Assembly: GCA_036274695.1 (NCBI GenBank)
Contig: DASUFF010000044.1
Span: forward strand, 484-64,483
Length of the DNA stretch: 64,000 nt
Reading direction: 5' to 3'
From: a bacterium
Lineage (GTDB): Bacteria > UBA10199 > JACPAL01 > GCA-016699445
Both the position numbers and the translations under genes were made by a program. Every line of letters starts with the position of its first letter. The stretch's first letter is position 1. Under the pieces are notes generated by a model that had not been told where the DNA came from, did not search any database, and saw only the letters and a list, made by a program, of their open reading frames with translations. This document shows, piece by piece, positions 19,532 through 59,321 of the stretch.

Positions 19532-19591
19532 AGAGATCTCCTTATCACGGAGTCGGGCGTTAGCGCCGATACCATTTCGGTTCGCAGGTCA

Positions 19592-19606
19592 TTATCATTA
19601 TGATAA
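19592..19606. promoter_or_regulatory. AT-rich 7-1-7 palindrome TTATCAT-T-ATGATAA (Fur-box-like hexamer array ATTATC ATTATG ATAAAT)
   Basis: Read directly from the sequence, in the divergent promoter region 19532-19704. The hand alignment to the 19-bp Fur consensus matches about 12-13 of 19 positions. Confidence 0.35.
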
Positions 19607-19704
19607 ATTAAAAATAAAGTTCTAAAATTGCGTTTGAACATCGATTCAATAGGTCTACAATTATTGCGGAAATAAATCGATTCAGACTCGAGAGAGGGGG
19701 TTCT

Positions 19705-20766
19705 ATGCGAGCCACGAAACCCATCCTTTACGTGTGTCTTTCCATCACGGTTCTTTGCGCGTCCACCGCGCTGGCCGAGACCGGTGTGAAGCCGTTTGCG
19801 ATTGATGCGCCGCTCAATGTCGGGGATTCGCTGACGCTACAATCGGACGTTCCGGATCATTTCGCGGCAGGTTGGTTTCAGAAACTCAACCTGGGCGAAA
19901 AGACGGGCGCCGCCGATTACCAGGAGAATATCTCCGGCTCCAGCTCTCGGACCCTTTCCGTCGGCGACGTCGTGAGCCAAAAAAACGGGAACATGGTCGG
20001 TCCGACCAATAAAGGGGTGAAGGATCTCATCGCCCAAGACCCGGACGCGTATTGGGATCAAACGAACGCCTGCGTCGTCACCTCCAATCCCGCCAGCCCT
20101 CGCATCGCCCCGCTCGTGGTCTTTGATCCGGAGGAATACTTGGAAACTGGCGTTGTCAGGATCGCGGCGTTTCAACAGGTCTTCTTTGAGGCCATTCTGG
20201 GCGGAAGCCAGGTGGTCGTCCGGGCGACGTCGAAGGATCCCGCCCGCACGTGTTTGGTCAACGAACAGAAGGAGACCACTTGCAACGACGGGCGGGACAA
20301 CGACGGTGACGGAGCCGTCGATTGCCAGGATTCCGATTGCAGCGCCGTCATCGGGTGTACAAGCGATATCAACGTCTCCGCCATTCCTCCCAGTGCGACG
20401 GTGGCGAGGGGGCAACAATTTGTCCGTGTGACGGGGGTCATCAACCCCTTCAATTCCGCATCCGCCGTCGTCACGGTGGTGGATCGCATCCCTCAGGGAT
20501 CTAACGTCGTCTCCATCGCTTCGGTCGACCTCTACCTTCAGGGATCGACCGAACCCGTCCGGGGCGCCTGCTCGGTCGATCAAACCGAGAGTCAAACCGA
20601 TATCGTTTGTACGAGTCCTTTGCAGGAGGGGACACGGATGGATATCGTCGTCGTCGAGACCATCTCCTCTGCGGGGATTTACGAACACGGGATTACGGCG
20701 TCGTCGGATCGAATCGATCCCAATCCGGCCGACAATGTCGCCGTTTTTACGGCGATCGTCGAATAG
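19705..20766 (+). CDS. exported protein with a CxDGxDNDGDGxxDC metal-binding-type motif and a DUF11-like C-terminal domain
   Basis: Signal peptide ending TALAETG. CNDGRDNDGDGAVDCQDSDC motif. Beta-rich C-terminus. Confidence 0.6.
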   Translation: MRATKPILYVCLSITVLCASTALAETGVKPFAIDAPLNVGDSLTLQSDVPDHFAAGWFQKLNLGEKTGAADYQENISGSSSRTLSVGDVVSQKNGNMVGPTNKGVKDLIAQDPDAYWDQTNACVVTSNPASPRIAPLVVFDPEEYLETGVVRIAAFQQVFFEAILGGSQVVVRATSKDPARTCLVNEQKETTCNDGRDNDGDGAVDCQDSDCSAVIGCTSDINVSAIPPSATVARGQQFVRVTGVINPFNSASAVVTVVDRIPQGSNVVSIASVDLYLQGSTEPVRGACSVDQTESQTDIVCTSPLQEGTRMDIVVVETISSAGIYEHGITASSDRIDPNPADNVAVFTAIVE

Positions 20767-21997: not shown

Positions 21998-23200
21998 ATG
22001 GCCGGGCAACGACTTAAATTGTTTGCCGCGCTCGCGGTCTTGGCGGCCCTCTCCTCCGTCGGGGGGTGTCCCTCGCCGAGCGGCCCTCCCGTCCCGCCCG
22101 CGGAGATCCCGTCCCTCGTCGCCTTCCCGCAGAGCGTCGGCATCGACGTCTCGAAGGCGGGCGAAGGCCCCTCCGCGGCCCTCAGGACCGAGGCGACCCG
22201 AAAAGATCAGTCCGACATTACGGATTTTTCAGACGTCATCTCCCTCGGGCCGGTCATCTTCAACGGCTTCAGCGTCCTACTGGACGCCTTCCTGGGGCCT
22301 CTTTCCGATCTTGAGATTCCGGTCAGCACGACGATCACCACCTTCGAAGGGCCGATGGCTTTCACGCCCGGCGCCATCGCGGTGGTCAAGATCGATTTCA
22401 CGGACTTCGACCTCGACGACGACGGGGCGCTCGAGGGTTGCAGCGGCTGCACGTGCCCCACGGGCTGCGCGCCGTCCTTCACCGCCTGTCCCTCGGAGGC
22501 GCCCGTGACCCGGCTCAAGCCCGTCTGCTACCGCATCTGGCTCCGCGATGTGGGGGAGACCGAGTTTGTGCGGTTCGCGGCCGGGCGGATCGACCGTTAC
22601 GCTGTGCGCGACGACCCGGCGACGGAGGCCAGCGAGGAAAACGCGGGCGAGGGCCGATTTCGGCTGGGCGTCAACCCGCGGCCGGCGCCGGACGGGACGA
22701 CCAACCCGCTCTCCTTCGGCGTCTTCTACGACCACTTGGACGAGACGGACTTTTTGAAAAAACAGACCGAGTTCTTCGTCAAAGACACGACGCTCGACTC
22801 GGGAAGGGCGGAAAAGGATCGCCTCGATGTTCACGCCTTCGTCACCCAGGAGGACGCGACCGGCGCCGGCGATCCCTCCTCGCTGAAGAAGACCGTCAAG
22901 CTCGACCAGCGCTTCAACCCGGATCCGGAGGACGGACCGGCGATCGTTCAATACATCGGCCGGTTCCGCAACGACGCGGATTTCTGGAGCGGGACCTTCA
23001 ACCTCGAGGACATCACGGGCGTGGATCCCAAAAAAGTCAGCGAGGAGAACGTCTGCGCGCGGATCTCGACGGGCGGCGAGGTCGGGCAAGGCAATTGTCT
23101 GGACTTAGGAATCGACGTCACCGGCGAGGAATTCCTTCTCCCTTCCCAAGACGCGAACGTCACCTTTCCCTCCGGCTTTCCGCAAACACCGACTTTTTAA
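21998..23200 (+). CDS. probable lipoprotein, function unknown
   Basis: N-terminus MAGQRLKLFAALAVLAALSSVGGC followed by a Pro-rich linker. No catalytic motif. Confidence 0.6.
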   Translation: MAGQRLKLFAALAVLAALSSVGGCPSPSGPPVPPAEIPSLVAFPQSVGIDVSKAGEGPSAALRTEATRKDQSDITDFSDVISLGPVIFNGFSVLLDAFLGPLSDLEIPVSTTITTFEGPMAFTPGAIAVVKIDFTDFDLDDDGALEGCSGCTCPTGCAPSFTACPSEAPVTRLKPVCYRIWLRDVGETEFVRFAAGRIDRYAVRDDPATEASEENAGEGRFRLGVNPRPAPDGTTNPLSFGVFYDHLDETDFLKKQTEFFVKDTTLDSGRAEKDRLDVHAFVTQEDATGAGDPSSLKKTVKLDQRFNPDPEDGPAIVQYIGRFRNDADFWSGTFNLEDITGVDPKKVSEENVCARISTGGEVGQGNCLDLGIDVTGEEFLLPSQDANVTFPSGFPQTPTF

Positions 23201-23298
23201 AACGGGTTCATTAGGTGGGCTTCAGCTGGATGACCTCTTTTCAAACCCCTCCATCCAAAATTCCGGACGATCCAGTAGATCGAGAGGCTCAAAAGCCG

Positions 23299-23314
23299 TG
23301 GCACCTTGATTGCA
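23299..23314 (+). promoter_or_regulatory. sigma-54 (-24/-12) promoter TGGCACcttgaTTGCA
   Basis: Perfect match to TGGCAC-N5-TTGCA, about 70 nt upstream of the ATG at 23388. Confidence 0.75.
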
Positions 23315-23387
23315 TTTCACTTTTTCCGTGTTCGAGACCCGGAAAGGTTGACGTGGAAAAGAGGAATTCTTAAGGAGGGAGACCGTT

Positions 23388-23675
23388 ATGGCGACCGACG
23401 AAAAACTCGATGAAGTTCTCAAGATCGTGCGTGAGCAGGGAAAACAGTTGGTGTCGCTCATCCAGGAGCAGGGCGAGCGCCACGAACGCCGTTTCAACGA
23501 AATCGATGGCCGATTTGCTGAGATCGACGACCGCTTCACTCAACTTGAAACTAGGCTGAATGCCAAGATCGACAAGGTCTATGAAGCCCTTTCTCAGGAT
23601 ATTTCCGTCTTCGCGGAAGATATGTATCGAGTGCAAGATCGTGTGACCCGGCTCGAAAAGAAGCTTCTCTCTTAG
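23388..23675 (+). CDS. small coiled-coil protein (95 aa), unknown function
   Basis: Good RBS (aaggaggg) and a heptad-rich sequence RFNEIDGRFAEIDDRFTQLETRLNAKIDKV. Confidence 0.65.
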   Translation: MATDEKLDEVLKIVREQGKQLVSLIQEQGERHERRFNEIDGRFAEIDDRFTQLETRLNAKIDKVYEALSQDISVFAEDMYRVQDRVTRLEKKLLS

Positions 23676-23707
23676 GCCCCCACTGAAACTCTGAAATCAG
23701 TCCCAGC

Positions 23708-23742
23708 TTTGGACTTTGGACCTTGGACTTTAGTCTTTGGAC
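23708..23742. repeat. tandem heptamer array (TTTGGAC x5, one unit degenerate), followed by the palindrome GGACTC-C-GAGTCC
   Basis: Read directly: tttggac tttggac cttggac tttagtc tttggac. It lies 33 nt after the coiled-coil ORF stop and about 160-195 nt upstream of the 23903 promoter. Confidence 0.8.
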
Positions 23743-23902
23743 TCCGAGTCCCCCGAGTGTTCCATCCGGTCCTGGCCCCTCGATTCACCATGGATTTGGC
23801 AAAGAAGTGATCATTTCCCATTTTAGGGTTTTTGATTTCACAATATCGGAAGTCTCAATTTCTCATTCATTAAAAACATTAATCAAATCAATATCATTTA
23901 TT

Positions 23903-23918
23903 CGGCATGGAACTTGCT
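23903..23918 (+). promoter_or_regulatory. sigma-54 (-24/-12) promoter cGGCATGgaacTTGCT
   Basis: GG and GC elements at consensus spacing, 29 nt upstream of the ATG at 23948. aaggag RBS in between. Confidence 0.65.
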
Positions 23919-23947
23919 GCTAACTAGGCTCCAACCAAGGAGATTTC

Positions 23948-24754
23948 ATGGAGCGTGGCACCTTCGTCGGTCGAGAGTACATCGATGCTCTGAAGACTCA
24001 TTACCCGCATTTCGTCGTGGGCGCGGCCCAGGAAAAGGTGGATGACAAGCTGCACATCGGCATCGTGGACGATTGGTGTCGGAATTACGATGAAGTCGGC
24101 GTCGATACGCTGGCTCGTTATCAGTCGATTCGTCAGCGTCCGTGGGGAGCGGCTCGTGGGGTTTGGGAAAGCGCGGGCGGCGGACCGAACCGTCGCATGG
24201 CGGGCGCTTACGGTTCTTACAAGGGGCTCATCAATTTAAAACCGGCCACCGACTTGGTTTTGTATTCCAACTTAATCTGGGAATTGAGACCCAAGACGAT
24301 TTTGGAATTCGGAAGCCTCCAGGGCGGAAGCGCTCTTTGGTTCGCGGATCAACTGGACGCTTTATGCGGCGGGCAGGGCGAAGTGCATTCGTTCGAGCTC
24401 TGCTACAAGTGCATCCATCCTCGCGCTTCCCACCCGCGCTTGCGCTTTCACGAAGCGGACATGCGCGACTTGAGCACCTTGAAGCGGGAGTTTTTGGAAT
24501 CCCTGCCGCGTCCCTGGCTCGTGATCGACGATTGCCACGAGAACCTGGAGAACGTGGTTCCCTTCATGGCGAGCCTGATGCAGGAGGGGGATTATTTCGT
24601 GATCGAAGACGCGTTTTCGAATCCCACGCCCGAAATCATCGGCAAGGCCACGGAGGCCATCGACGGCTTGGGCTTCCTCGTGGACACGAAATACACGGAC
24701 GCTTACGGCATGAACGTGACGTGCGCGCCGAACGGCTGGTTGGTGAAGATTTAA
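23948..24754 (+). CDS. CmcI/cephalosporin-hydroxylase-family class I SAM-dependent methyltransferase
   Basis: KPATDLVLYSNLIWELRPKTILEFGSLQGGSALWFA is the CmcI-family pattern (G-x-G-G-S nucleotide loop). Confidence 0.65.
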   Translation: MERGTFVGREYIDALKTHYPHFVVGAAQEKVDDKLHIGIVDDWCRNYDEVGVDTLARYQSIRQRPWGAARGVWESAGGGPNRRMAGAYGSYKGLINLKPATDLVLYSNLIWELRPKTILEFGSLQGGSALWFADQLDALCGGQGEVHSFELCYKCIHPRASHPRLRFHEADMRDLSTLKREFLESLPRPWLVIDDCHENLENVVPFMASLMQEGDYFVIEDAFSNPTPEIIGKATEAIDGLGFLVDTKYTDAYGMNVTCAPNGWLVKI

Positions 24755-24805
24755 ACGGCTAGGCGTCGCAGTCTGCGTCGGTGCCGAAGGAGATTAGGCG
24801 CCACG

Positions 24806-24943
24806 CGCCGTTTTTCAATCCGTTCGTCAGCTCGAGCAAACACCAACGACGTGATGCCCCGAGCCTTCGGCGCCTGCCTGCTCCTGGCCGCGGTTGTCTT
24901 GGCGGTTCAGATGAACCCCCGCTCAAATCCACGGCTTTTTTGA
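24806..24943 (+). pseudogene. truncated paralogue fragment of the small membrane protein gene at 28361-28624
   Basis: 24853-24907 aligns by hand to 28471-28525 at 44 of 55 nt. It encodes MPRAFGACLLLAAVVLAV versus MPRAFGACLLLAAAVLAL. The upstream part is only weakly similar and there is no N-terminal half. Confidence 0.5.
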
Positions 24944-25051
24944 TAATCACCGCATCATTCCGGGTATTTTCTAACTCCCTACGCCCCGAAGACTCTTAAT
25001 AATAGTCTTAATAATTAAGTGCTTAGACTGCCGGTCGCCAAGACCCTTTGG

Positions 25052-25067
25052 TGGCATGGTGGTTGCT
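25052..25067 (+). promoter_or_regulatory. sigma-54 (-24/-12) promoter TGGCATGgtggTTGCT
   Basis: Full consensus match, 27 nt upstream of the ATG at 25095, which has a ggagg RBS. Preceded by an AT-rich stretch with repeated AGTCTTAATAAT/AGACT units (24989-25030). Confidence 0.75.
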
Positions 25068-25094
25068 ATCTTAGCTCTCAAAAATGGAGGATAT

Positions 25095-25601
25095 ATGGCA
25101 CCCATTCGGCGGGCCAGGCATTACGTCACGTACTTAATGGCCCTTTTCATTTCAGGTCTCTTCTCATTGGTCGGGCGCCATGCCCCGGCCTGGGCTCAGG
25201 ACGTTCGAAGCCAGCAAAGCGCAAAAATTTTCAGCGAGGTTCTTCAGGGTAATCAGGCAAGCGTTCAGAAAAAACCGACGGGGACCTCGACCGCCGCTCA
25301 AACGGAACAGCTCGGCGATTCCCGCGCGTTAAAAATCATTCCGGAACCCGGAAACATCAACGAGAGGGAAGGAAGAAGTGCCACACTGAACCCGGAGTTG
25401 ACCCCGGAGGCCAACCAGCAGGTCAACGAGACCATGAACAGAATCGAGCTCAAACTGAGGAACAAGGAAGCCCTGACCTCCGAAGAATTCTCCTTATTGG
25501 CGGGCGTGCAAAACACGGCGCGGCTCAATGACATTTACATGCAGTTGAATACGCTGATGTTGATGGTCCGCGATCTTCAAGAAAAGGCGCCGAAACAGTG
25601 A
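25095..25601 (+). CDS. exported or membrane-anchored protein with a coiled-coil C-terminus, unknown function
   Basis: N-terminus MAPIRRARHYVTYLMALFISGLFSLVGRHAPAWAQD (signal or anchor). The start is moved from the track ATG at 25056, which lies inside the promoter. The stop overlaps the next start (GTGA). Confidence 0.6.
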   Translation: MAPIRRARHYVTYLMALFISGLFSLVGRHAPAWAQDVRSQQSAKIFSEVLQGNQASVQKKPTGTSTAAQTEQLGDSRALKIIPEPGNINEREGRSATLNPELTPEANQQVNETMNRIELKLRNKEALTSEEFSLLAGVQNTARLNDIYMQLNTLMLMVRDLQEKAPKQ

Positions 25602-27217
25602 AAATTTGCCTCATCAATCCACCGACCACCGCTCCTTGGGAACGCCGCGTTTATTTCCCCATGGCCTTGATCACATTGGGCGGGGTTTTGAAGAAATTGG
25701 GCGTTGAGGCGGCCCTCTGGGATTTCGATCTTTATTTCAAAAAGGCGGGGAACACCACGGAGGCCGGTTTCAGCCGCCTGCTGAAGGCCGGCGTCGTTTC
25801 TGCGGGTACGAAAATCTTCGGCATTTCGTCGCTCTGCTCGAATTTTCCCATGGCCGTCTGGATCTCTAAGAAGATCAAAGAATATTGCCCGGACGCCTTG
25901 ATCATCCTGGGAGGACCGCAGCCCTCGTCGATACCCACGCAGATTCTGGAACAATTTGATTTTATCGACGTCGTCGCCGCGGGCGAGGGAGAAGTCACCC
26001 TGGAAGAGATGGTCCGGTGCAATTTCGACCGCGCCGCACTCGCCGAAATACCGGGTGTCGCCGTCAGGATCGGCCAGGAAATCAAATTCAATACGAAAAG
26101 GCCTCTCGTCGCCGACATGGACGATCTTCCGATGCCCGATTGGTCCTTGCTGGATCTCAAGGAATATTACGCCCCGCACCTGGAGAAATTCCCGACGCCG
26201 GTGGAAGTCGGCCGCGGATGCCCTTATAATTGCACGTTCTGCTCGACCGCCCTGATGTGGCAAAAAGACTTCCGCGTAAAATCGCCCAGAAGGATTCTCG
26301 ATGAGATGGAGCTCCTTCATCGGGAATACGACATCACGGAATTCGAGTTCGTCCATGACAACTTCACGACCTCCAAGAAGTTCGTGGGCGAATTTTGCGA
26401 TTTCATGGAACGCGAAAACACCAAAAACTTTCTGTGGCATGCGGCCTCTCGAACGGATTGCCTCGACATCCCCCGATTGGAAAAGATGCACGCCGTCGGG
26501 TTGAAGGGCCTTTTTTTCGGCATCGAGACCGGTTCCGAAAGAATGCAAAAAGTCATCAAAAAGGGGCTTCAGTTCGATAGATTCGAGCCTATCTTACGAC
26601 GGGCGAACGAGTTGGAAATCGTCGTGACGACGGCATTCATTCTGGGATTCCCCGATGAGGAGGCCGAAGACTTCGATCAAACCGTGCGCCGGGCCCTGCA
26701 TTATAAGAACCTCGACACGCGGTGGGTCGTCTTCTCCAAGCTGGCGGCTTTAACGGGCACGGACCTCTATCGCAATTACGTGGATAAGCTGACCACGCCG
26801 TCGGGACTCTCCGTTTTCAGCCCGCAATATTACGGGCTCCCGTACATCAACGACCTGATCAAGAAGCACCCCGATCTCTTTTCTTCTTTTTATCACGTTC
26901 CGCACCGTCTGTTTTCCTCCGAGTTTCTCGGAAAGTTCGTCCAGTTCGCGAGTTTGTTGGTGAACGGAAATCCCAAGACCACCCTCATGATCATGGAAAA
27001 TCTGCGCATCGGTGTGGTCGAATTGTTTTCCCTGTGGGACGATTGGGCCCTGGAAAGAGACATTCCCTGCTTCCGTCATCATTCCTATTCCTACGAACGC
27101 TTCCGTAAGGACTTTGCGGCCTTCCTGAATGACGTGATCTTCAAAGGCGCGATCGCGATGACGCACGGTGGTTCGGAAGGAAAATTCGAGTCTTCAGGCC
27201 ACGCGATTTTTTCCTAA
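25598..27217 (+). CDS. B12-binding-domain (class B) radical SAM enzyme
   Basis: N-terminal Rossmann-like MKICLINPP...ILGGPQPS...AAGEGE followed by the radical SAM cluster motif GRGCPYNCTFC. Confidence 0.8.
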   Translation: MKICLINPPTTAPWERRVYFPMALITLGGVLKKLGVEAALWDFDLYFKKAGNTTEAGFSRLLKAGVVSAGTKIFGISSLCSNFPMAVWISKKIKEYCPDALIILGGPQPSSIPTQILEQFDFIDVVAAGEGEVTLEEMVRCNFDRAALAEIPGVAVRIGQEIKFNTKRPLVADMDDLPMPDWSLLDLKEYYAPHLEKFPTPVEVGRGCPYNCTFCSTALMWQKDFRVKSPRRILDEMELLHREYDITEFEFVHDNFTTSKKFVGEFCDFMERENTKNFLWHAASRTDCLDIPRLEKMHAVGLKGLFFGIETGSERMQKVIKKGLQFDRFEPILRRANELEIVVTTAFILGFPDEEAEDFDQTVRRALHYKNLDTRWVVFSKLAALTGTDLYRNYVDKLTTPSGLSVFSPQYYGLPYINDLIKKHPDLFSSFYHVPHRLFSSEFLGKFVQFASLLVNGNPKTTLMIMENLRIGVVELFSLWDDWALERDIPCFRHHSYSYERFRKDFAAFLNDVIFKGAIAMTHGGSEGKFESSGHAIFS

Positions 27218-27379
27218 AGCGGCAAAGGAAAAGTCGGACACGCGTCGACCCCATTGAAAAATAGTCCGAAAAGGTTTCAGAAATCCGCATCGTCCAAAAA
27301 TCAAACCTAGCTGTCCATTCCCCCGGTCTTTCAATCCCGTGATCGCCAATATTTCCTAGCCATTCCGCATCATCGCACT

Positions 27380-27395
27380 TGGCCCGCGTCTTGCT
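27380..27395 (+). promoter_or_regulatory. sigma-54-like promoter TGGCCCGcgtcTTGCT
   Basis: GG/GC spacing is correct, with one mismatch (A5 to C). It lies about 95 nt upstream of the TTG start at 27492. Confidence 0.45.
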
Positions 27396-27416
27396 CTCCT
27401 ATCAATAGCCGGTCGT

Positions 27417-27445
27417 TTGACAAGTGATACCTTTAAAGGTATCAT
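27417..27445 (+). promoter_or_regulatory. sigma-70 promoter TTGACA-N17-TATCAT containing a perfect 18-bp palindrome GATACCTTTAAAGGTATC (27426-27443)
   Basis: Read directly from the sequence. The palindrome spans the spacer and the -10 box, which is the classic operator position. Confidence 0.7.
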
Positions 27446-27491
27446 ATTGGAGGTAGCGTGGGCAGGATAAGGCGGGGGCGAGGAGTGTTTT

Positions 27492-27956
27492 TTGAAACAT
27501 AACAAATTCAGAAAGGTCGAGTTCGACAACAAGAAGAGGGTTTTTCATCTAGAGTATTCTTCCGGTTTAAAGGTGGATTGCCCTTATTCCGCCCTGGGCA
27601 TTCGAGACAGAGTGGTCGAAGCCGGACTGGATCCTGAAGTGGGGCGGCATTCCTTTTATTTCAGGCTGAATAACGGCAAGAAAGATTATGTCCCCCACGA
27701 TCAGCCGCTCCATATCGTCCAAAACCCCGAGTACGTCCGCGAAACGACGCTCTTTGAAGTGACCAAACAGCTGAATCGCTTCATTCGGGAATCCGGGGTT
27801 TCCAAGCGTGAGCTGGCCAGGCGACTCGGCACATCTCTGACCCAGCTAGCCCGACTTTTGGATACGACGAACTACAAGAAGGAACTTTCCCGCCTGATCG
27901 AGCTGGCGGCCATGCTCAACTACGAATTCAAATGGGAATTCAAACGAGCCGCATGA
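27492..27956 (+). CDS. DNA-binding protein: unknown N-terminal domain plus a C-terminal XRE-type helix-turn-helix
   Basis: SKRELARRLGTSLTQLARLLD is HTH-like. TTG start with an aggag RBS 6 nt upstream. Confidence 0.6.
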   Translation: MKHNKFRKVEFDNKKRVFHLEYSSGLKVDCPYSALGIRDRVVEAGLDPEVGRHSFYFRLNNGKKDYVPHDQPLHIVQNPEYVRETTLFEVTKQLNRFIRESGVSKRELARRLGTSLTQLARLLDTTNYKKELSRLIELAAMLNYEFKWEFKRAA

Positions 27957-27973
27957 AATGCTACGGTTTCCCC

Positions 27974-28360
27974 ATGAAATACCTCCACACCATGCTCCGA
28001 GTCGTCGACCTCGAAAAATCCCTCAAATTCTACACCGAAGGCCTCGGCTTCCACCTCATCTCCCGCGAAGACTACCCCAAGGACAAATTCACCCTCGCTT
28101 TCATTGCGCCGCCGGGTTCCGGCAAAGACGCCCCGATGATCGAGCTCACCCACAATTGGGAGACCAAATCTTACGTCCACGGCGACGGCTACGGTCACAT
28201 CGCGTTTCAAGTGGACTCCATCGCGGACGTCCAGAAGCGCCTGAAGGAGCACGGCTACGATTTAAGCTGGGGCCCGGGCGAGACGCCGTCGGGTAAGCGG
28301 AAGATGGCCTTTGTGGACGATCCGGATGGGTATGAGATCGAGTTGTTGGAAGGGCACTAA
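27974..28360 (+). CDS. gloA: lactoylglutathione lyase (glyoxalase I)
   Basis: MKYLHTMLRVVDLEKSLKFYTE.LG...ELTHNW...YGHIAF.V...GYEIELLE is the canonical GloA pattern. Confidence 0.88.
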   Translation: MKYLHTMLRVVDLEKSLKFYTEGLGFHLISREDYPKDKFTLAFIAPPGSGKDAPMIELTHNWETKSYVHGDGYGHIAFQVDSIADVQKRLKEHGYDLSWGPGETPSGKRKMAFVDDPDGYEIELLEGH

Positions 28361-28624
28361 TTGTCCCCCATCTTCAAAATCATCGTCATCTTCCTTCTGG
28401 CCTGGCCGGCCTTGGTCTCCCTCATCACCGGCCGCATCTATCTCCGTTCCGGTTCTACCGCGAAAGGATGGATGCCCCGGGCCTTCGGCGCGTGTCTTCT
28501 CTTGGCGGCGGCGGTCTTGGCTCTGTATTGGACGGGGCATTGGCCGTTGTCGCTTCAAGGGGCCGTCACGCCGGCGGTGGTGGTGCTGTTGGTCTTGGCC
28601 GTGGCGCTGCAAGCGATTTTTTGA
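28361..28624 (+). CDS. small integral membrane protein (3 predicted TM segments)
   Basis: TTG start immediately after the gloA stop. Hydrophobic segments. A diverged fragment copy sits at 24806-24943. Confidence 0.5.
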   Translation: MSPIFKIIVIFLLAWPALVSLITGRIYLRSGSTAKGWMPRAFGACLLLAAAVLALYWTGHWPLSLQGAVTPAVVVLLVLAVALQAIF

Positions 28625-29136
28625 AGTTGACGTCGCTTATTCGTTTCTCCGGGGTCGTCCCCTCGAGGAGCCATCATTTGACCCGCGAAGTGAACGGCCG
28701 CCTTGGTCCGATCGGCCTCCGCGAGCCGCTCCGCTTTTTTCCAAACCGGCTGGAGCTTTCGCCCGGCGTCATAAGAGCCGCGGACGATTGTCGTGAGCCA
28801 AAAACCGTCCGATTGAGGAGGGGAGGGATCGTCGGAGACGGTCGCGTTCGCGGCCAAGGCGATTTGCCGCCCCAACTCGAAATCGGAGATCTCGTGATCG
28901 TCGATCGCAAGGAGTTCGCGCAATTCCGAAATATTGTCCGCTCCGAGCGTGTTGAAGAATTGGATGAGATAGAAAGTGCGGCTTAAGGCGAAGCTCTGAT
29001 CGCGGCGCCGGACGATGCCGGACACCATCTGCACGGAGGTCCCGGGTGAGGTCAAGGAGTCACGGGACGCCTCCACTCGCCATTCCTCGGGATGCCTCGG
29101 ATCCAAGATGAAGCGTGCCGAGGTCATGGAGGGCAT
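28555..29136 (-). CDS. hypothetical protein
   Basis: 193-aa ORF with no motif. Its 3' end overlaps the convergent small membrane ORF by 70 nt, so one of the two ends may be wrong. Confidence 0.4.
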   Translation of the reverse strand: MPSMTSARFILDPRHPEEWRVEASRDSLTSPGTSVQMVSGIVRRRDQSFALSRTFYLIQFFNTLGADNISELRELLAIDDHEISDFELGRQIALAANATVSDDPSPPQSDGFWLTTIVRGSYDAGRKLQPVWKKAERLAEADRTKAAVHFAGQMMAPRGDDPGETNKRRQLQKIACSATAKTNSTTTAGVTAP

Positions 29137-34247: not shown

Positions 34248-34703
34248 GTGTCCCGAACGATCTTCTCCCTGCACCTGGCCGCGACGCTCTTCTTGGTCGG
34301 GCTCATTTGGTTCGTTCAGCTCGTCCACTATCCGCTGTTCGATCACGTCACCGCCGCCCTCTCGCCGTCCTACGAGATCGCGCACGTCTGGAAGACCATC
34401 GCGCTGGTGGCGCCGGTGATGTTCGCGGAGGGAGCCACGGGCGTCCTCCTCCTTTGGAAGCGTCCGGAAGGCGTCGGGGCGCCCGCGGTGTGGATCGGGC
34501 TCGTCCTCCTGATCGTGATCTGGTCCTCCAGTTTTTTCTTTCAAGTCCCCCTGCACCGGCTTTTGTCCCAGGGTTTCGACGAGACCGCCCACCGCAGCCT
34601 CGTGGCGACGAATTGGATCCGGACGATCGCGTGGAGCCTGCGCGGGCTTCTCGTGCTTAGGATGAATCGGAAGATGGACGGGGCCCGGGCCTCAGCGGAC
34701 TAA
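34248..34703 (+). CDS. DUF1772-like integral membrane protein
   Basis: Four hydrophobic segments. The pattern F.VQLVHYPLF...W is typical of that family. GTG start. Confidence 0.5.
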   Translation: MSRTIFSLHLAATLFLVGLIWFVQLVHYPLFDHVTAALSPSYEIAHVWKTIALVAPVMFAEGATGVLLLWKRPEGVGAPAVWIGLVLLIVIWSSSFFFQVPLHRLLSQGFDETAHRSLVATNWIRTIAWSLRGLLVLRMNRKMDGARASAD

Positions 34704-36392
34704 CTGGCACCCGCCGCCGCTTCCGCCTCCGCCGCCCGTGGAGGCCGTTCCGCCGCCGGACGCGGACACGGTGATCGTCGCCGAGGCGGCGTTGTCGCCG
34801 GGGCTTAAGTCCCCGATCTGGCCCGAGACGGAGATCGCGTTCACAGCGCTTCCCGCGGAGGAAGGCGTCGCGTTGACGATGACCGTCGCGTCTTCCGACG
34901 GCTCGAGGATGCCCAAATCGCAGACGACCTTCGGGCCGGAGGAGCAGGCGCCGTGCGTCGAAGACGCCGAGGTGACGGTCAAGACCGAAGGAACGGAATC
35001 GACGACCTGCACGCCGTGGGCCGCGAGCGGGCCGTTGTTGACCGCGGTGACGGTGAAGGTCACGGGGGCCCCGTCTCCCACTGTCGCCTCCGTGCGGCTG
35101 GCGAGGACCGAAAGGGAGAGATCGGTTAAGTCCCCCTGAAAGACGACGAGCGTGGCGTCGAACAGGCCCACCGAACCTTCGCGGATGGAGGCGCCGGGAA
35201 CGATCACCCGGCCGTCGTTCAAGACGGCCACGTCCGCGCCGAAATCGGTGTCTCCCGGCGTGACGTCGACGAAGGCGAAGCCGTCGCCGCTGAAGGTCGC
35301 GTCGGGCGTTCCGTTGGCCTCGTAACGAGCGGCGAAGAAGGCGGAATCGCCCCCGGCTGCGTCCACCTCGCCTCCGACGACGATCCGGTCGTCCTTCATG
35401 ATGTCCAACCCCGCCGGCGTCTCCTTGGTGACGCCCGGGATGTCGGAGATGACCTTGCCGTCCGCGTCGAAGTCGTTGTCGACGCCGCCTTCCGCGGTAA
35501 AGCGCAGCAGGCAGAGGCGGTTGTTGCCTCCGACCCGCGTCGAAGCGACGACGACGATGCGTCCGTCGGATTGGAAGCCGAAGTCCGAGGGGGAATCGTC
35601 GTCGTTGCAGAAATTGAAGGTGAAACCGCCCGTTCCGAAATCCGTGTCCGGCGACCCGTCTGCGAGGAGGCGCACGACGGCGTCGACGTCGTCGGCCTTC
35701 GAGACGGCGACGATGCGGCCTTCGGCGTCCACGCCCAAGGCGCGCAGACCGACCGTCGACGCGGGGCCGACTTTACTGGCGACCGTTCCGCCGACGCCGA
35801 AACCGGCGTCCAAGACGCCTTCCGGCGTGTAACGGGTGACGGTGAATTCGTCCGCCGCGCCGTTGTTTCCGATCAGGATGTTGCCGTCCTGGTCCAGGGC
35901 GATGGCGAAGCCCGGAGAGGGAAAGATGACGCCGTCTTCCCCGAAATTTGAGTCGCGCGTGCCGTCGGTGTTGTAGCGCGCGACGATGTTCTCGAAGGTC
36001 AAGCCGTCCATTCCGAATCCGACCCCCACGATCTTCCCGTCCGGTTGGACCAGCAGGCGCGTCAGCTCTTCCGGGCCGGGGTCCAAGATGCTGTCGGCCA
36101 CGACGCCGTCCGTGCCGAAGGCGGCGTCCAAGACTCCGTCGGTCGTCGTGTGCATCAGAAGAAAGTCGCGCGTGCCTCCCTGGCCCGTTTCCCCGATCGC
36201 TCCCCCGGCCAAAATCCGGCCGGAAGGAAGAGGGAAGGCGGTGTCGGCGTTCGAAAAATCGGCCAATTCCAGCCGGAGGATGCCGCCGTCCCCGAAGGCC
36301 GGGTCCAGGTCGCCCGGAGCGGCGAAGGCCGGCGGGACGCAAACGGCGACGAGAACCACGGAGATAAAAATGCGACGCACGATGCGAGCCAT
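34692..36392 (-). CDS. exported delta-60-repeat (beta-propeller) protein with a DUF11-like domain and Gly-rich tail
   Basis: Signal peptide ending PAFAAPG. Seven D-x-x-F-G-x-x-G units (LDPAFGDGG, LDAAFGTDG, RDSNFGEDG, LDAGFGVGG, PDTDFGTGG, VDNDFDADG, PDATFSGDG). C-terminal tail GGGGGSGGGCQLVR. Confidence 0.75.
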   Translation of the reverse strand: MARIVRRIFISVVLVAVCVPPAFAAPGDLDPAFGDGGILRLELADFSNADTAFPLPSGRILAGGAIGETGQGGTRDFLLMHTTTDGVLDAAFGTDGVVADSILDPGPEELTRLLVQPDGKIVGVGFGMDGLTFENIVARYNTDGTRDSNFGEDGVIFPSPGFAIALDQDGNILIGNNGAADEFTVTRYTPEGVLDAGFGVGGTVASKVGPASTVGLRALGVDAEGRIVAVSKADDVDAVVRLLADGSPDTDFGTGGFTFNFCNDDDSPSDFGFQSDGRIVVVASTRVGGNNRLCLLRFTAEGGVDNDFDADGKVISDIPGVTKETPAGLDIMKDDRIVVGGEVDAAGGDSAFFAARYEANGTPDATFSGDGFAFVDVTPGDTDFGADVAVLNDGRVIVPGASIREGSVGLFDATLVVFQGDLTDLSLSVLASRTEATVGDGAPVTFTVTAVNNGPLAAHGVQVVDSVPSVLTVTSASSTHGACSSGPKVVCDLGILEPSEDATVIVNATPSSAGSAVNAISVSGQIGDLSPGDNAASATITVSASGGGTASTGGGGGSGGGCQLVR

Positions 36393-36579
36393 GAGTCCTC
36401 CTTAAGCAATCGTTGGTAGGAAGCCAAACATAGCGGGTCGCAAACGGGCGCACAACCACTTCGGAGAAAAAGTATTTTCTTCGTGTTACCGACTGAATAC
36501 GGAAAGTCCCTCCGCTCGCCGTCTCTCCTTGAAATCCCGACGGCACTCGGGCTCCAATGAATGAAGGCAAAGGAAAACC

Positions 36580-38121
36580 ATGAAAAAAACGCATTTTCTC
36601 GCCGTCATCGCCCTGGCTTCGACGCTGACGGGGCTCGGCTGCGGGCAGGAGACCCTGACCGGGGCGCTGATCGACGGGCCGGTTCAAGGCATTTCGTATG
36701 AAACGGAGAGCGAAGCCGGCGTCACCGACGAGGAGGGCGCCTTCCGATTTCATCAAGACGAGACCGTCCGGTTCTTTTTGGGGGACATCGATCTGGGCAC
36801 GGTCTCCGGCGAGATGGTCGTCACTCCCTTCGACCTGGCGGGGATCGAGCCTCTGACGAACGCGCGGGAGATCCGGGCGATGTTCCACCAAGTCCTCAAC
36901 CGGCACTCCCATCCCTTCGAGCGCGCGGCCAACATCAGCTTGTTCCTGCAAAACAGCGATCGGGACCAGGATCCTTCCAACAGCATCGTCGTGCCCGAGG
37001 GGATGGCGGAGCTGACCTCGGGCGTCAGCCTTCCCTTCGACGAGAATTTCAGGTTTTTCCCGCACAATCCAAGCCTTCGCGGTTTCATCAACGCCGGCGC
37101 CGCCGCCGGCTTGTTCACGGCGGGGCCTTTCGAGACGGATTATCCCAACGCCCTCGACCACCTGTACGCTTCGCTGGGGCTGACGCCGGGGATCTACCGC
37201 AGCGTGGGTTCGCGTTTCGACGCGGACGGAGACGGCGTCTTCGACCAGATCCGCCATACCACCTACAACGCCGCCGGGCTGAAAGAACGGCAGGAGCTCG
37301 ATACGGACGGTGACGGGACGGCGGACCGCGTGGAACGTTTCACCTACGACGCGCGCAACCGTCTCACACACACCGAGGAGGATACGGACAACGACGGGAC
37401 CTTCGACGTTCTGGCGGACTTGACCTACGACGCCTCCGGGCGGCTGATCCTGACGGAGGTGGACGACGACGCCGACGGCGCACCGGATTCCGTCACCGCG
37501 CACGAATACGACGCGTTGGGGAACGAGGTCCGCACGGTCCGGGACGACGACGGCGACGGGACGACCGACCGGGTCGAGGAGTTCGCCTACGACGAAAACG
37601 GCAACCCGACGTTCTTTAAGGTGGACGTGGACGGCGACGGGACGTTCGATTCCTCGACGACGTCGACCTATGATGCGAACCACAACCAGCTCACGAGCGC
37701 GACGGACTCCGACAACGACGGAGCGGTGAACTCCACCTCCGCGACCGCCTACGACGAAAACAACAACCGTCTGCGCTCGGAAAACGATTTCGACGCGGAC
37801 GGAGTTCCGGACTTAGTCACCGTTTTCTCCTACGACGCCGCGGGCAACCAGATCAGCTCGGAGACGGACTTAAACGGGGACGGGACGACCGACCGGATGG
37901 TCACCCGCGCCTACGACGATGTGGGCAATCCCATCCTCACGGAGGAGGACACCGACAACGACGGCACGATCGACCGGCGCTCGACGGAGGAGATCAACGC
38001 CTTCGGATATCCCGTCCGGTTCGTCAGTGACGACGACGCCGACGGGACCCCCGATTCCGTGAGCGAGCTCGATTACGAGTTGGGCAACTGGCAGGCCTTC
38101 TTCGTGGAGTTCTTCGATTGA
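36580..38121 (+). CDS. probable lipoprotein with 11 tandem YD / DxDxDG repeats
   Basis: N-terminus MKKTHFLAVIALASTLTGLGC. Repeats of about 24-26 aa combine a Ca-binding-type DxDxDG with YDxxGN (RHS/YD-like). Confidence 0.75.
   Translation: MKKTHFLAVIALASTLTGLGCGQETLTGALIDGPVQGISYETESEAGVTDEEGAFRFHQDETVRFFLGDIDLGTVSGEMVVTPFDLAGIEPLTNAREIRAMFHQVLNRHSHPFERAANISLFLQNSDRDQDPSNSIVVPEGMAELTSGVSLPFDENFRFFPHNPSLRGFINAGAAAGLFTAGPFETDYPNALDHLYASLGLTPGIYRSVGSRFDADGDGVFDQIRHTTYNAAGLKERQELDTDGDGTADRVERFTYDARNRLTHTEEDTDNDGTFDVLADLTYDASGRLILTEVDDDADGAPDSVTAHEYDALGNEVRTVRDDDGDGTTDRVEEFAYDENGNPTFFKVDVDGDGTFDSSTTSTYDANHNQLTSATDSDNDGAVNSTSATAYDENNNRLRSENDFDADGVPDLVTVFSYDAAGNQISSETDLNGDGTTDRMVTRAYDDVGNPILTEEDTDNDGTIDRRSTEEINAFGYPVRFVSDDDADGTPDSVSELDYELGNWQAFFVEFFD
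37219..38076 (+). repeat. coding tandem repeat region (11 units of about 72-78 nt)
   Basis: DADGDG, DTDGDG, DTDNDG, DDDADG, DDDGDG, DVDGDG, DSDNDG, DFDADG, DLNGDG, DTDNDG, DDDADG, each followed by xxYDxxGN. Counted in the translation. Confidence 0.75.
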
Positions 38122-38131
38122 GGGCGGCGAG

Positions 38132-40006
38132 TTAAACCGTCCGGCTGACCAGGGTGTACTGGAACCGGGACAATTCGCTCCGCAGCGCGCGGTAGAGCGC
38201 CTCCGGGATCTCGATGTAGACCTGGCGGCGGTAGCGCCGCAGGTGTTTGAGCAGGAGGCGGGTCTGTTCGGCGCCGGATTCCTTGAAGGCGCGCAGGTCG
38301 ATGACGACCTCCTCGTGCGTCTTCCTCAAGGTCTTCCGAAGGGCCTTGGAGAGATTCAGGACCTTTTTCATCTCCATCGCCCCCTTCAATTCGACGCGCA
38401 GACGGTCGATCCCGTCCCACGCCGCGATCTTGAGCGAGACGCCCTCCAATCCGTCCCGTGCGCGGAGCAAGAAGGCTTGAAGCTTGAGACGCGCCGTTTC
38501 CACGCGGGTCGCCGTTTTGTCGAAATGGCGCACGCGGTAGCTCTTCAGCGACAGGGCGGCGATCCAGTCGGTGATGATCACAGCGAGCGTCTTCGGGTTC
38601 CGGGCGGCGGAGAGGCAGGAACGCAGGAAATACGCGATCCGTCTCGGGCCTCCGGGCAGGATGCCGTGGAGCATCAGGCCGGAGGCGTAGGAAAACTTCT
38701 GACGGAAGCTCAAGTGTGGAGACGTAAGCGGGTGTTTCAGGTGCTTCAACTTGTTGCGGATACGTTCGTAGATGGCGCGATCGTCGGTCAGGCGGCGCTG
38801 GAGGTCTTCGTAGCCGACGATCAGCTCCTCCTGCGACATCTGGAGCGGGATGACGTTGGTGAACGGGCGCGTGTTGTCCGGCGCAGCCTCCTGCCGCAAG
38901 CGCCCGGCCTTGTGCAGCCTCTCGAAGAGAGGCGTCTTGGGCAGGGCGCAAAGCAGGGCGACCATCGAGACGACGATGCCGGAGTTGACGATGAAGTGAT
39001 ATTGGCGCTCGAAGATCGTCTTGTCGTCGTGGTCGAAGCCGACGATGAAGCCGGCGAAGATGTCGATGCCGTGTGCGTAGACCGTCCGGATGGAGGTCAG
39101 CAGATCGCTTCGAAGATTCTGGTTCTTCAGCGTCTCCTTCAAGCTCTCCTCGTTCGGCGTCTCGATGCCGATGAAGACCCACTCGAAGTTGGCCTTTTGG
39201 AAGAGGCTCATCAGCTCGGCGTCGCCCGTCATGTTGATGGAGGCCTCGGTGCCGAAGCTGAAGCGGTAATCGTGCCGCTTCTGGTAGTCCGCGAGGAAGG
39301 CCAGGAGCTCCTTGGCCTTGTGGATGTGGCCGATCAAATTGTCGTCCACGAAAAAGACGCTGGTGACGCCGCGGCTTCTCAGCATGTCCAGTTCGCGCTC
39401 CACCTGCTCCAGGGATTTCGTGCGGGGCTTGCGGCCGAACATGACGATGATGTCGCAGAATTCGCATCGAAAAGGGCAGCCGCGGGAGAATTGCAGGGAA
39501 ACCTTTTGGTAGAGGTCCGTGTTGAGAAGGTCGTAGCGCGGCGCGGGGGAGTCGGTCAGATCCACTTCCCCCGTCTCCTGATACAGGGCCCGGGGCGAAC
39601 CGGCGGCGAAGTCGGCGCAGAATTTGGGCCAGATGTATTCCGACTCCCCGGCGATGACGGCGTCGGCCAAGCCTTCGTAATCCTCCGGACACAGCGAGGC
39701 GTAGGAGCCTCCGGCGACGACGAAGATCCCGCGCTTCTTGAAATGCTCCAGGATCTCCTTCTGGCGGGGGACCTGGACGCCCATGCCGCAGACGCCCACC
39801 ACATCGGCCTCGAAATCCCAGTCGATGGGCTCGACGTTCTCGTCGATCAAGGCGATGTCCCAATCCGCGGGCGTGAGGGCGGCCAGCGTCGCCAATCCCA
39901 GGGGGGAATTGACGGCCTTTTTGTCCTTGGCGACGTTGTCCAACACCCACGTGAAGCTCCAGAAGCTCTCGGGAAACTTGGGATTGATGAGCAGGAGGCG
40001 GGGCAC
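38132..40006 (-). CDS. B12-binding radical SAM enzyme (DUF4070-type) with a roughly 110-aa C-terminal STAS-like extension
   Basis: MPRLLLINP...GGSYAS (B12-like domain), SRGCPFRCEFC (radical SAM cluster) and a DUF4070-like region. The tail VVIDLRAFKESGAEQTRLLLKHLRRYRRQVYIEIPEALYRALRSELSRFQYTLV follows the STAS pattern. Confidence 0.75.
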   Translation of the reverse strand: MPRLLLINPKFPESFWSFTWVLDNVAKDKKAVNSPLGLATLAALTPADWDIALIDENVEPIDWDFEADVVGVCGMGVQVPRQKEILEHFKKRGIFVVAGGSYASLCPEDYEGLADAVIAGESEYIWPKFCADFAAGSPRALYQETGEVDLTDSPAPRYDLLNTDLYQKVSLQFSRGCPFRCEFCDIIVMFGRKPRTKSLEQVERELDMLRSRGVTSVFFVDDNLIGHIHKAKELLAFLADYQKRHDYRFSFGTEASINMTGDAELMSLFQKANFEWVFIGIETPNEESLKETLKNQNLRSDLLTSIRTVYAHGIDIFAGFIVGFDHDDKTIFERQYHFIVNSGIVVSMVALLCALPKTPLFERLHKAGRLRQEAAPDNTRPFTNVIPLQMSQEELIVGYEDLQRRLTDDRAIYERIRNKLKHLKHPLTSPHLSFRQKFSYASGLMLHGILPGGPRRIAYFLRSCLSAARNPKTLAVIITDWIAALSLKSYRVRHFDKTATRVETARLKLQAFLLRARDGLEGVSLKIAAWDGIDRLRVELKGAMEMKKVLNLSKALRKTLRKTHEEVVIDLRAFKESGAEQTRLLLKHLRRYRRQVYIEIPEALYRALRSELSRFQYTLVSRTV

Positions 40007-55630: not shown

Positions 55631-55646
55631 TGGCACGGACGTTGCA
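55631..55646 (+). promoter_or_regulatory. sigma-54 (-24/-12) promoter TGGCACGgacgTTGCA
   Basis: Perfect consensus, 70 nt upstream of the porin ATG. The upstream region carries two TTGCGGCA repeats (55556 and 55612 regions) separated by an AT-rich tract. Confidence 0.8.
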
Positions 55647-55716
55647 TATGGCCTCCTGACAAGAAAAGATTTTGGGGCAACGATTCATTTTCACTCATTC
55701 CTATAAGGAGGTCGTT

Positions 55717-56865: not shown

Positions 56866-56899
56866 AACGACTTTAACGAACTTTTTTTAAGGAGAAGTT

Positions 56900-58327: not shown

Positions 58328-58332
58328 ACTAA

Positions 58333-58683
<351 letters not shown>

Positions 58684-58811
58684 TGAACGAAAGAAGGTTC
58701 CCTTCTGAAGTGAACGGTACGTTCACGATTATCAGATGGGGTTTCAGGGGAGAGCAGTATCTCCCCTGACTAAGACGACTGCGAGCGGAGAGCATGCGAG
58801 TGGCTCTCTCA

Positions 58812-58853
58812 CACCAGGCCCCCACAATGGGGTGGGGGCCTGGTGCTTTTTTT
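58812..58853 (+). terminator. Rho-independent terminator (14-bp stem caccaggcccccac/gtgggggcctggtg + T7)
   Basis: Read directly from the sequence. Confidence 0.85.
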
Positions 58854-58910
58854 GTGAGCGATGCCCGCCAAACGGGCTTGCCCATGATCGAGGCATAAGA
58901 AGAGTCATAA

Positions 58911-59321
<411 letters not shown>

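Follow-up and report, generated by a model that had tools for sequence, protein, structure and literature searches.

The DNA analyzed here is a 64-kb window of one contig (DASUFF010000044.1) of the candidate phylum UBA10199, and our subject is a block of this window, positions 23201-27960, in which five genes lie on the plus strand. They encode a 95-aa coiled-coil protein with RF..ID.RF repeats, called cc95 here (23388..23675); a stand-alone S-adenosylmethionine (SAM)-dependent methyltransferase of the CmcI family (268 aa, PF04989; 23948..24754); a 168-aa protein with a signal-peptide-like N terminus, exported or membrane-anchored, called the partner protein (25095..25601); a cobalamin-dependent, class B radical SAM enzyme (539 aa, PF04055 and PF02310; 25598..27217); and an antitoxin-like regulator of 154 aa, composed of a beta domain at the N terminus and an XRE-type helix-turn-helix (HTH) at the C terminus, whose gene starts with TTG after the Shine-Dalgarno sequence GAGGAG (27492..27956). 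The block is bordered by a lipoprotein-like gene of 400 aa on the 5' side (21998-23200) and by a glyoxalase gene on the 3' side (27977-28360), and the remainder of the window is ordinary chromosome containing priA, def, fmt, rpe, serS, a sigma-70-family factor gene and others. A first-pass annotation made from the sequence had called these genes correctly, as a 95-aa coiled coil, CmcI, a signal-peptide protein, a B12 radical SAM enzyme and an HTH protein, and had interpreted them as one undescribed system, acquired and placed under RpoN control.

In base composition, the block is the most deviant part of the window. Its G+C content is 0.529 (52.9 %) against 0.615 (61.5 %) in the remainder, the lowest value among all 4760-nt windows in the 64 kb, and the tetranucleotide deviation peaks at the same place (0.289, compared with a window mean of 0.16 and a standard deviation of 0.033, i.e., about four standard deviations). 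The G+C content at third codon positions (GC3) is 0.61-0.73 in the block genes and 0.78-0.88 in most other genes of the window, with values near 0.7 in a few further ones; at first and second positions (GC1 and GC2) the block genes are reduced as well. The low G+C content had been proposed from hand counts of single 60-nt lines, and the computed sliding values bear it out. The counts themselves were accurate (0.533, 0.517 and 0.45 for the lines at 25601, 26281 and 27541), but the flanking line of about 80 % used for comparison (15241; computed as 0.833) is an outlier, as flanking lines average 0.614.

Sigma-54 sites in the block and in related loci

Matches to the sigma-54 consensus TGGCAYG-N4-TTGCW with at most one mismatch were collected from both strands of the window, and 100 dinucleotide-preserving shuffles were used as the background. 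Six such near-consensus matches were obtained where 0.49 are expected, a number reached in none of the 100 shuffles, and four of the six are in the block, with no or one mismatch. When two mismatches were allowed, the signal was gone (12 matches against 9.9 expected), and therefore the unusual feature is the near-consensus quality of the sites. Scores were also calculated with a -24/-12 weight matrix, which only approximates published sigma-54 compilations and of which the consensus-plus-shuffle test is independent. By this approximate matrix the six sites score 14.5-18.9 bits, the four of the block 14.5-18.2 bits and the next best site in the window 11.9 bits.

The four block sites, P1 to P4, are those which the first-pass annotation had listed at 23299, 23903, 25052 and 27380, and each was found there, on the plus strand and in an intergenic region. 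P1 (23299..23314, TGGCACcttgaTTGCA; 16.2 bits, one mismatch) is 73 nt from the ATG of cc95 at 23388, which has the Shine-Dalgarno sequence AAGGAGG. P2 (23903..23918, cGGCATGgaacTTGCT; 15.1 bits) is 29 nt from the ATG of the methyltransferase gene at 23948 (AAGGAG), and P3 (25052..25067, TGGCATGgtggTTGCT; 18.2 bits), a perfect consensus, is 27 nt from the ATG of the partner gene at 25095 (GGAGGA). P4 (27380..27395, TGGCCCGcgtcTTGCT; 14.5 bits) is 96 nt from the start of the HTH gene. All six sites in the window are intergenic and co-oriented with the gene downstream, and those of the block stand 27-96 nt before a start codon with a strong Shine-Dalgarno sequence.

The remaining two sites serve as a positive control. 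The site at 55631..55646 (plus strand, TGGCACGgacgTTGCA; 18.9 bits) is about 25 nt before a porin-amtB-glnK operon, identified by Pfam as BBP2 porin, Ammonium_transp and P-II, and the site at 58942..58957 (plus strand, cGGCACGcgcaTTGCT; 15.3 bits) is about 25 nt before glnB-glnA (P-II and glutamine synthetase). The genes glnA and glnK-amtB are classic targets of NtrC and sigma-54. Since the two that are not in the block both stand before gln/amt operons, the organism appears to use the canonical consensus, and matches at that score should be real promoters. The block sites equal in quality the glnA and amtB promoters of the same window, and sigma-54 promoters in the block are thus credible; the gln and amt promoters also argue, indirectly, for the presence of RpoN in the organism. 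Nitrogen-assimilation genes are compactly grouped at 55631-60827, and ntrBC is not nearby.

For comparison with relatives, 84 loci around related radical SAM genes were fetched with flanks of up to 10 kb; loci from other genomes are cited here by L numbers. A sigma-54 site was found upstream of the partner gene in six of 11 related operons: 14.7 bits in L097, the closest orthologue, 16.2 in L006, 14.3 in L009, 12.4 in L007, 10.6 in L003 and 16.0 in L016, which belongs to a second paralogue group. In all six, the palindrome TTATCA-N3-TGATAA (at most one or two mismatches) is located 59-123 nt upstream of the -24 element, and it is triplicated in L016. This motif has just 18 matches in 361 kb of UBA10199 loci. 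In L018, tandem pairs of the palindrome, 17 bp apart, accompany three further sigma-54 sites, two of which are divergent and drive small exported proteins. This layout is that expected for the enhancer of a bacterial enhancer-binding protein (bEBP) and defines a candidate regulon in UBA10199, in which the operon of the relatives would be switched on by an activator bound to the palindrome. The place occupied by the palindrome in relatives is taken in the window by an AT-rich repeat and palindrome, 33-63 nt upstream of P3 (24989..25019; AAGACT-N9-AGTCTT, CTTAATAATTAAG, and two copies of TCTTAATAAT).

Tandem palindromes were observed at L018 8050-8330, L018 20300-20470 and L016 9260-9380, where they are either flanked by divergent sigma-54 promoters or placed 70-95 nt upstream of one, and the genes behind these promoters are those of small exported proteins (one Cys-rich) and of a partner-radical SAM operon. 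In the window, a perfect copy of the same motif (CATTATCATTATGATAAAT, at 19593) is found within 19590-19704, about 30 nt upstream of a sigma-70-like TTGAAC-16-TACAAT, which precedes a 353-aa DUF11-type gene (19705-20766); no sigma-54 site is present there.

P4 precedes a cassette which recurs among relatives and in which a 66-aa DUF4160 gene stands before the HTH gene with a 4-nt overlap (8 of 8 loci with six distinct cassette versions, by gene call or direct translation). The sigma-54 element is present in four of six distinct copies of the cassette, i.e., in the window (TGGCCCGCGTCTTGCT, 14.5 bits), in L092-94 (TGGCACGCCGATTGCT, 18.6 bits), in L095/96 (CGGCACGCTGATTGCT, 16.0 bits) and in L088 (TGGCACAGGTCTTGCC, 13.9 bits), and no such element was found in the copies of L089 and L090. 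P4 begins 37 nt upstream (start to start; 37-47 nt in the closest cassette copies) of the -35 box of a sigma-70 promoter, TTGACA-17-TATCAT (27417..27445, plus strand), which agrees with the consensus at 11 of 12 positions and is conserved in L088, L089, L090 and L095/96. Since the spacer bases of the sigma-54 element vary between copies, a real tandem arrangement of sigma-54 and sigma-70 promoters is favoured. A perfect 20-bp palindrome, TGATACCTTTAAAGGTATCA (27425..27444), overlaps the spacer and the -10 box of the sigma-70 promoter; its core GATACC-N6-GGTATC is conserved in all cassette copies, and it is the probable operator of the HTH protein. The HTH gene had been described as autoregulated, and it does look so, though through a canonical sigma-70 promoter and an operator that had been missed. 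Because of the motif statistics, the gln/amt control and the positional conservation of P3 and P4, the proposed RpoN wiring of the block is credible.

Pfam searches of about 55 open reading frames (ORFs) and six-frame searches with signature regular expressions detected no bEBP, RpoN, integrase or transposase in the window, in agreement with the first-pass annotation. That annotation had treated the missing activator as a notable feature; it is unremarkable, because the gln/amt sigma-54 operons of the window have none nearby either. Transcription from P1 to P4 would need ATP-dependent enhancer-binding activators encoded elsewhere, as would that from the glnA and amtB promoters. The bEBP signature GAFTGA gave no match as a regular expression in 395 kb of fetched UBA10199 loci, and L088 carries one bEBP gene (Response_reg, Sigma54_activat and HTH_8), which is cut by the end of the locus. 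In the same locus (5061-5611), a gene of ORF6N/KilA-N type with an 18.5-bit sigma-54 site lies beside the DUF4160/HTH cassette, and the start of the NtrC-type bEBP gene (12009) is about 5.5 kb downstream.

The four units

The protein cc95 has no Pfam or NCBIfam family above cutoff and belongs to a tiny family of about ten true relatives (80-137 aa, 43-70 % identity), in which the N and C termini are conserved and the number of repeats varies. A metagenome scan with cc95 returned one distant contig of 1.9 kb, without a sigma-54 site. Between cc95 and P2, about 150-195 nt upstream of the latter, four tandem (C)TTTGGAC repeats end in the palindrome GGACTCCGAGTCC (23707..23751); they are a candidate activator site that is not common to the other promoters. 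The DNA directly upstream of P2 is very AT-rich (0.43 G+C) and includes a sigma-70-like match of 9/12 directly before P2.

The methyltransferase is assigned to CmcI by PF04989 with 46.3 bits, above the gathering cutoff of 23.2, and it scores 52 bits against the rhamnosyl O-methyltransferase equivalog, whose cutoff is 400. Among its many homologues, the closest (62-67 % identity) adjoin a polyketide synthase, lie in a cluster of nonribosomal peptide synthetase type, or stand beside a dehydrogenase and an insertion sequence (IS) element; no sigma-54 site was found upstream of the homologues in L085-L087, which are from other taxa. After the gene there is a terminator-like hairpin with a T-run (24797..24819, plus strand; GGCGCCACGCGCC followed by GTTTTTCAAT), recognized by consensus match only. 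The spacer that separates the methyltransferase gene from the partner gene has a locally GC-rich part, in which a hydrophobic ORF of 30 codons (24855-24947, MPRAFGACLLLAAVVLAVQMNPRSNPRLF) may be the signal-peptide remnant of a lost gene.

The radical SAM enzyme matches PF04055 with 70.9 bits and PF02310 with 31.5 bits, the latter slightly below the cutoff of 32.1, and the B12-binding domain is pre-annotated in all of its homologues. The CX3CX2C motif (C208, C212 and C215 in GRGCPYNCTFCS) is invariant across 26 homologues. The best orthologue is 63 % identical, and the homologues at 36-63 % identity are from metagenome-assembled genomes labelled UBA10199, "Deltaproteobacteria bacterium", "uncultured Pseudomonadota bacterium" or "bacterium", labels which we read as candidate phylum UBA10199. 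TokK is the best sequence match in the PDB. The AlphaFold model (predicted local distance difference test, pLDDT, of 87) has TsrM, TokK, MgmA, AprD4, CysS and OxsB as its top folds, and it superposes on B12-bound TsrM and TokK over more than 480 columns. The best NCBIfam match is rSAM_ApyD with 281.8 bits (E = 1e-83), and assignment as an ApyD equivalog was rejected against the cutoff of 750. No cobalamin riboswitch stands ahead of the operon, since an Rfam scan of 22500-29000 at E <= 1 gave zero matches. A second, unrelated B12-binding radical SAM gene is present elsewhere in the window (38132-40006, minus strand; Radical_SAM and DUF4070, 624 aa).

The stop codon of the partner gene overlaps the GTG start of the radical SAM gene (GTGA). 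The partner protein has no Pfam or NCBIfam family; in the window it has a signal-peptide-like N terminus with ..APAWA/QD and the motif SAKIF, for which most relatives have NAKVF; its middle is Pro-rich and variable, and a coiled coil forms the C-terminal part. In L001/L008, L003, L005-L007, L009-L016 and L097, a homologue is encoded by the gene directly upstream of that for the radical SAM enzyme. In about 13 relatives the conserved parts are the signal-peptide-like MA.IRRAK.Y..YL.AL...G.FS..GR.AP.WA/EE with NAKVF, and the C-terminal coiled coil with LT..E...L. The middle is hypervariable and is composed, in many species, of near-identical lineage-specific tandem repeats (MTFPPEATPGADR x5, YTFPPEGR x8, GILAAPATQK x6, RGKAVTPADT x6 and TKGWLTAEHA x3); the window protein has little repetition.

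More distant relatives of the enzyme, at 30-33 % identity (Acidobacteriota, Opitutia, Anaeromyxobacter and Methanosarcina), have their own conserved family of 60-110-aa peptides encoded upstream. This family (L026-L034, L037, L039, L041 and L052) follows the pattern ..V.VP...LT..E...L..AF...V..V.., often with a Lys-rich tail, has no NCBIfam match, and may be an undescribed family of precursor peptides. Homology between these peptides and the partner protein, with which they have LT..E...L in common, was rejected by profile-profile comparison (probability 0.8 %). Judging from these gene orders, enzymes of this radical SAM clade repeatedly have a polypeptide of their own encoded upstream. MgmA, the methyl-coenzyme M reductase glutamine methylase, is a precedent for a cobalamin radical SAM enzyme that methylates a folded or nascent protein. 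Because of the recurrent upstream polypeptide and of the precedents ApyD and MgmA, the partner protein is a candidate substrate, to which we give roughly even odds against the alternative of a membrane-anchoring or accessory role. The enzyme would act in the cytoplasm on its co-translated partner before export, and the likeliest reaction would be B12-dependent C-methylation, as in the nearest characterized relatives ApyD, TokK and MgmA.

In the last unit, the HTH protein matches HTH_26 with 21.7 bits (Pfam) and is far more conserved than the rest of the block; its homologues, at 69-97 % identity, form more than 120 clusters, in almost all of which the length is exactly 154 aa. Its model (pLDDT 82) shows a beta domain and an HTH, with weak fold matches to HicB3 and NE0471 (E of about 0.02). 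A DUF2442 assignment was rejected, as the N-terminal 89 residues have no Pfam match even at E = 5. The neighbourhood of the cassette differs in each relative, often with other toxin-antitoxin (TA) genes. The DUF4160 gene is intact in L088-L090 and L092-L096, and PF13711 was confirmed for the copy of L088. Alignment with L088, L089 and L090 revealed an internal deletion of about 160 nt in the window, where the first dozen DUF4160 codons are retained in a remnant of 14 codons (27458..27502, plus strand; VGRIRRGRGVFFET*) that is fused to the TTG start of the HTH gene. From this alignment, the toxin-like gene is lost and the repressor-like gene is retained in the window.

The conservation of neighbourhoods was examined by tblastn of every block and flank protein against the 84 loci. 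The partner was found in 12 of the 84, always directly upstream of the radical SAM gene, while no homologue of cc95, CmcI, the HTH protein, the glyoxalase or the upstream 400-aa protein was detected within 10 kb in any of them. The pair of partner and radical SAM genes is thus a conserved neighbourhood, but the other block genes are absent near it and the CmcI homologues are elsewhere. On the 3' side of the block, 34692-38121 encodes a surface protein of DUF5122 beta-propeller/DUF11 type together with an RHS-repeat protein, and these, with the DUF11 protein at 19705, suggest a neighbourhood rich in cell-surface genes.

Accessory patch, acquired system or native region

We consider it probable that the block, atypical in composition, is a patch of accessory genes made up of four transcription units that are independent of one another and have genuine-looking RpoN promoters, and not one pathway. 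The units would be a small coiled coil, a stand-alone CmcI enzyme, a translationally coupled pair and a decayed TA-type cassette. The cluster of sites is read here as a lineage habit of putting accessory genes under RpoN and not as a sign of a common pathway; in L088, the closest genome, two strong sigma-54 sites lie less than 700 nt apart before adjacent accessory genes. As a caveat on the clustering, the block has 24 % of the intergenic bases of the window, and P is only 0.03 for at least four of six sites in the block when clustering is calculated per intergenic nucleotide. Several observations weigh against the reading as an accessory patch. P1 and P2 are backed by score and position, and orthologous loci were found for neither; P4 is directly upstream of a near-perfect sigma-70 promoter, which is possibly the only functional one. 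Five of the 11 orthologous partner operons (L001/L008, L005, L010, L011 and L012) carry no sigma-54 site, and the TTATCA-N3-TGATAA palindrome was not found upstream of P1-P4, where the best matches have 4-5 mismatches (P3: 4). A search for k-mers, inverted repeats and repeat families in the six upstream regions gave no element common to the four block promoters, or to these and the gln/amt promoters, and rpoN itself was not found in the 64 kb. The G+C dip comes partly from four long intergenic regions (1073 nt, 43-54 % G+C) and from amino-acid composition, and no mobility gene, flanking direct or inverted repeat or adjacent tRNA was found at the block, the sole tRNA of the window being at 8948. 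In the partner protein, only the signal-peptide-like N terminus and the C-terminal helix are strongly conserved, so an accessory or anchoring role is possible.

If some or all of the block matches were non-functional look-alikes, transcription would be of sigma-70 type and the clustering would reflect the large intergenic share, with which the value of P = 0.03 agrees. The 11/12 promoter of unit 4, the 9/12 match before P2, the want of comparative support for P1 and P2 and the different sequence upstream of P3 would also be accounted for. We nevertheless judge this improbable, since chance would give 0.49 such matches in 128 kb and both of those found elsewhere in the window stand before gln/amt operons, since P3 and P4 keep their position across diverged relatives while neighbouring bases change, and since all of the sites have the right orientation to, and distance from, a start codon with a strong Shine-Dalgarno sequence. 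The reading of the first-pass annotation, that the five genes are one undescribed, horizontally acquired system jointly wired to RpoN (e.g., a pathway of peptide or protein modification in which the methyltransferase and the radical SAM enzyme would act together with a structural or precursor protein and a dedicated regulator), draws on the sigma-54 sites and low G+C of all four units. It could also cite the clustering per intergenic region: all six strong sites are inside the 30 intergenic regions of at least 50 nt in the window (rough gene call), and P = 5.5e-4 that the four block regions are all among the six occupied. A pairing of a B12 radical SAM enzyme, ApyD, with a SAM methyltransferase, ApyS, is known from the apy cluster for a ribosomally made peptide that is modified after translation (RiPP) (PMC10635010). 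The neighbourhood data have already largely refuted this single system, which we now hold to be very unlikely: cc95, CmcI and the HTH gene do not accompany the enzyme in the 84 loci, CmcI and the HTH gene each turn up elsewhere in neighbourhoods of an unrelated kind, the HTH gene is part of a cassette complete in itself, promoter and operator included, the four promoters have no common upstream element, and a terminator-like hairpin follows CmcI.

The origin of the block is a separate matter, and horizontal acquisition is plausible. It is suggested by the compositional outlier, the decayed mobile cassette and the methyltransferase with relatives in other contexts. Alternatively, the block may be a native, weakly expressed and fast-evolving region, whose low G+C content would result from relaxed codon bias, proteins rich in Lys, Glu, Asn and Phe, and long regulatory spacers. 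Within the phylum UBA10199 the pair of partner and radical SAM genes is typical, as is the HTH cassette; integrase, transposase, flanking repeat and adjacent tRNA are all missing, GC1 and GC2 are lowered together with GC3, the intergenic DNA has 0.43-0.54 G+C, and a few other genes in the window have GC3 near 0.7. We doubt this explanation, however, as the block is the single most deviant stretch in both G+C and tetranucleotides, about four standard deviations from the mean, includes a decayed cassette found at different sites in different genomes, and carries a methyltransferase whose closest relatives have other surroundings, in one case an adjacent IS element.

Within the accessory patch, the partner-radical SAM pair is the part most worth following. 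As a tentative proposal, which we ourselves think unlikely to hold in full, 25095-27217 may be an undescribed protein-maturation module specific to UBA10199, in which the cytoplasmic enzyme would C-methylate, or modify in another way, a Sec-exported protein with Pro-rich repeats and a coiled coil before its export, and which would be one member of a sigma-54 regulon that comprises small exported proteins and is controlled by a bEBP that recognizes tandem TTATCA-N3-TGATAA. The module and the candidate enhancer in relatives are a concrete target for finding a new protein or peptide modification, and the TA-type cassette with tandem sigma-54/sigma-70 promoters is second in interest. The present analysis indicates that in UBA10199, an uncultured phylum, the canonical RpoN -24/-12 consensus is legible in the DNA itself, as validated on the gln and amt operons, and that the lineage puts sigma-54 promoters before accessory genes, including a TA-type cassette. 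It is also a reminder that adjacency and a common promoter type do not make a system.

Comparison with known systems

The block promoters resemble glnAp2 and glnK-amtB with NtrC in having the -24 GG and -12 GC, canonical spacing, near-consensus sequence and a distance of 27-96 nt to their genes. The palindromes of the relatives, 59-123 nt upstream and in part arranged as tandem pairs 17 bp apart, are like enhancer sites. Unlike glnAp2 and glnK-amtB, the block promoters precede accessory genes (a coiled coil, a methyltransferase, a radical SAM pair and a TA-type cassette), and unlike in NtrC systems no recognizable enhancer site was found in the window for them. With the CmcI/rhamnosyl O-methyltransferase family, the window methyltransferase has a clear domain match in common, and its close homologues are tailoring-type enzymes in natural-product clusters; it differs in being stand-alone, in not being a rhamnosyl O-methyltransferase equivalog and in having a sigma-54 site which its homologues lack.

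Pairs of DUF4160 and DUF2442 proteins have been reported as type II TA modules, e.g., dhiTA in Dickeya dadantii (PMC8198452), and a plasmid-stabilizing pair of this kind has been described in Thermus (PMC12724237). Like DhiTA, the cassette of the relatives is compact, with the DUF4160 gene first, an overlap of 4 nt, contexts that vary and often include other TA genes, and a palindrome over the promoter. It differs in its second protein, which has 154 aa with an XRE-type HTH and an N-terminal domain without a DUF2442 sequence match, and in the conserved sigma-54 element added in the closest copies; in the window, moreover, the DUF4160 gene is cut to 14 codons and is no longer intact. A TA-type cassette with a conserved sigma-54 promoter in tandem with an autoregulated sigma-70 promoter would, if true, be unusual.

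The radical SAM enzyme has a near full-length fold match to TsrM, TokK, CysS, OxsB and MgmA (Foldseek E = 1e-20 to 5e-22, template modeling score 0.56-0.68), with the same N-terminal Rossmann B12 domain and CX3CX2C radical SAM core. It is distinguished from them by an identity of 14-19 % and by a family-specific C-terminal helical domain (residues about 415-524). ApyD is a B12-dependent radical SAM Tyr C-beta-methyltransferase which acts on a RiPP precursor in aminopyruvatide biosynthesis (PMC10635010). The locus in the window is not a RiPP cluster of this type: the score of 282 bits is far under the cutoff of 750, the locus lacks an RRE domain, an MNIO enzyme, a P450 and a protease/transporter, and the upstream product is a Sec-type exported protein of 168 aa instead of a short precursor peptide. 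In the related loci as well, this product is a signal-peptide protein (168-240 aa), no third gene is conserved, and no extra domain was found by Pfam and NCBIfam. What the enzyme has in common with ApyD is the class B architecture and a candidate peptide or protein substrate gene that lies directly upstream and would be co-transcribed.

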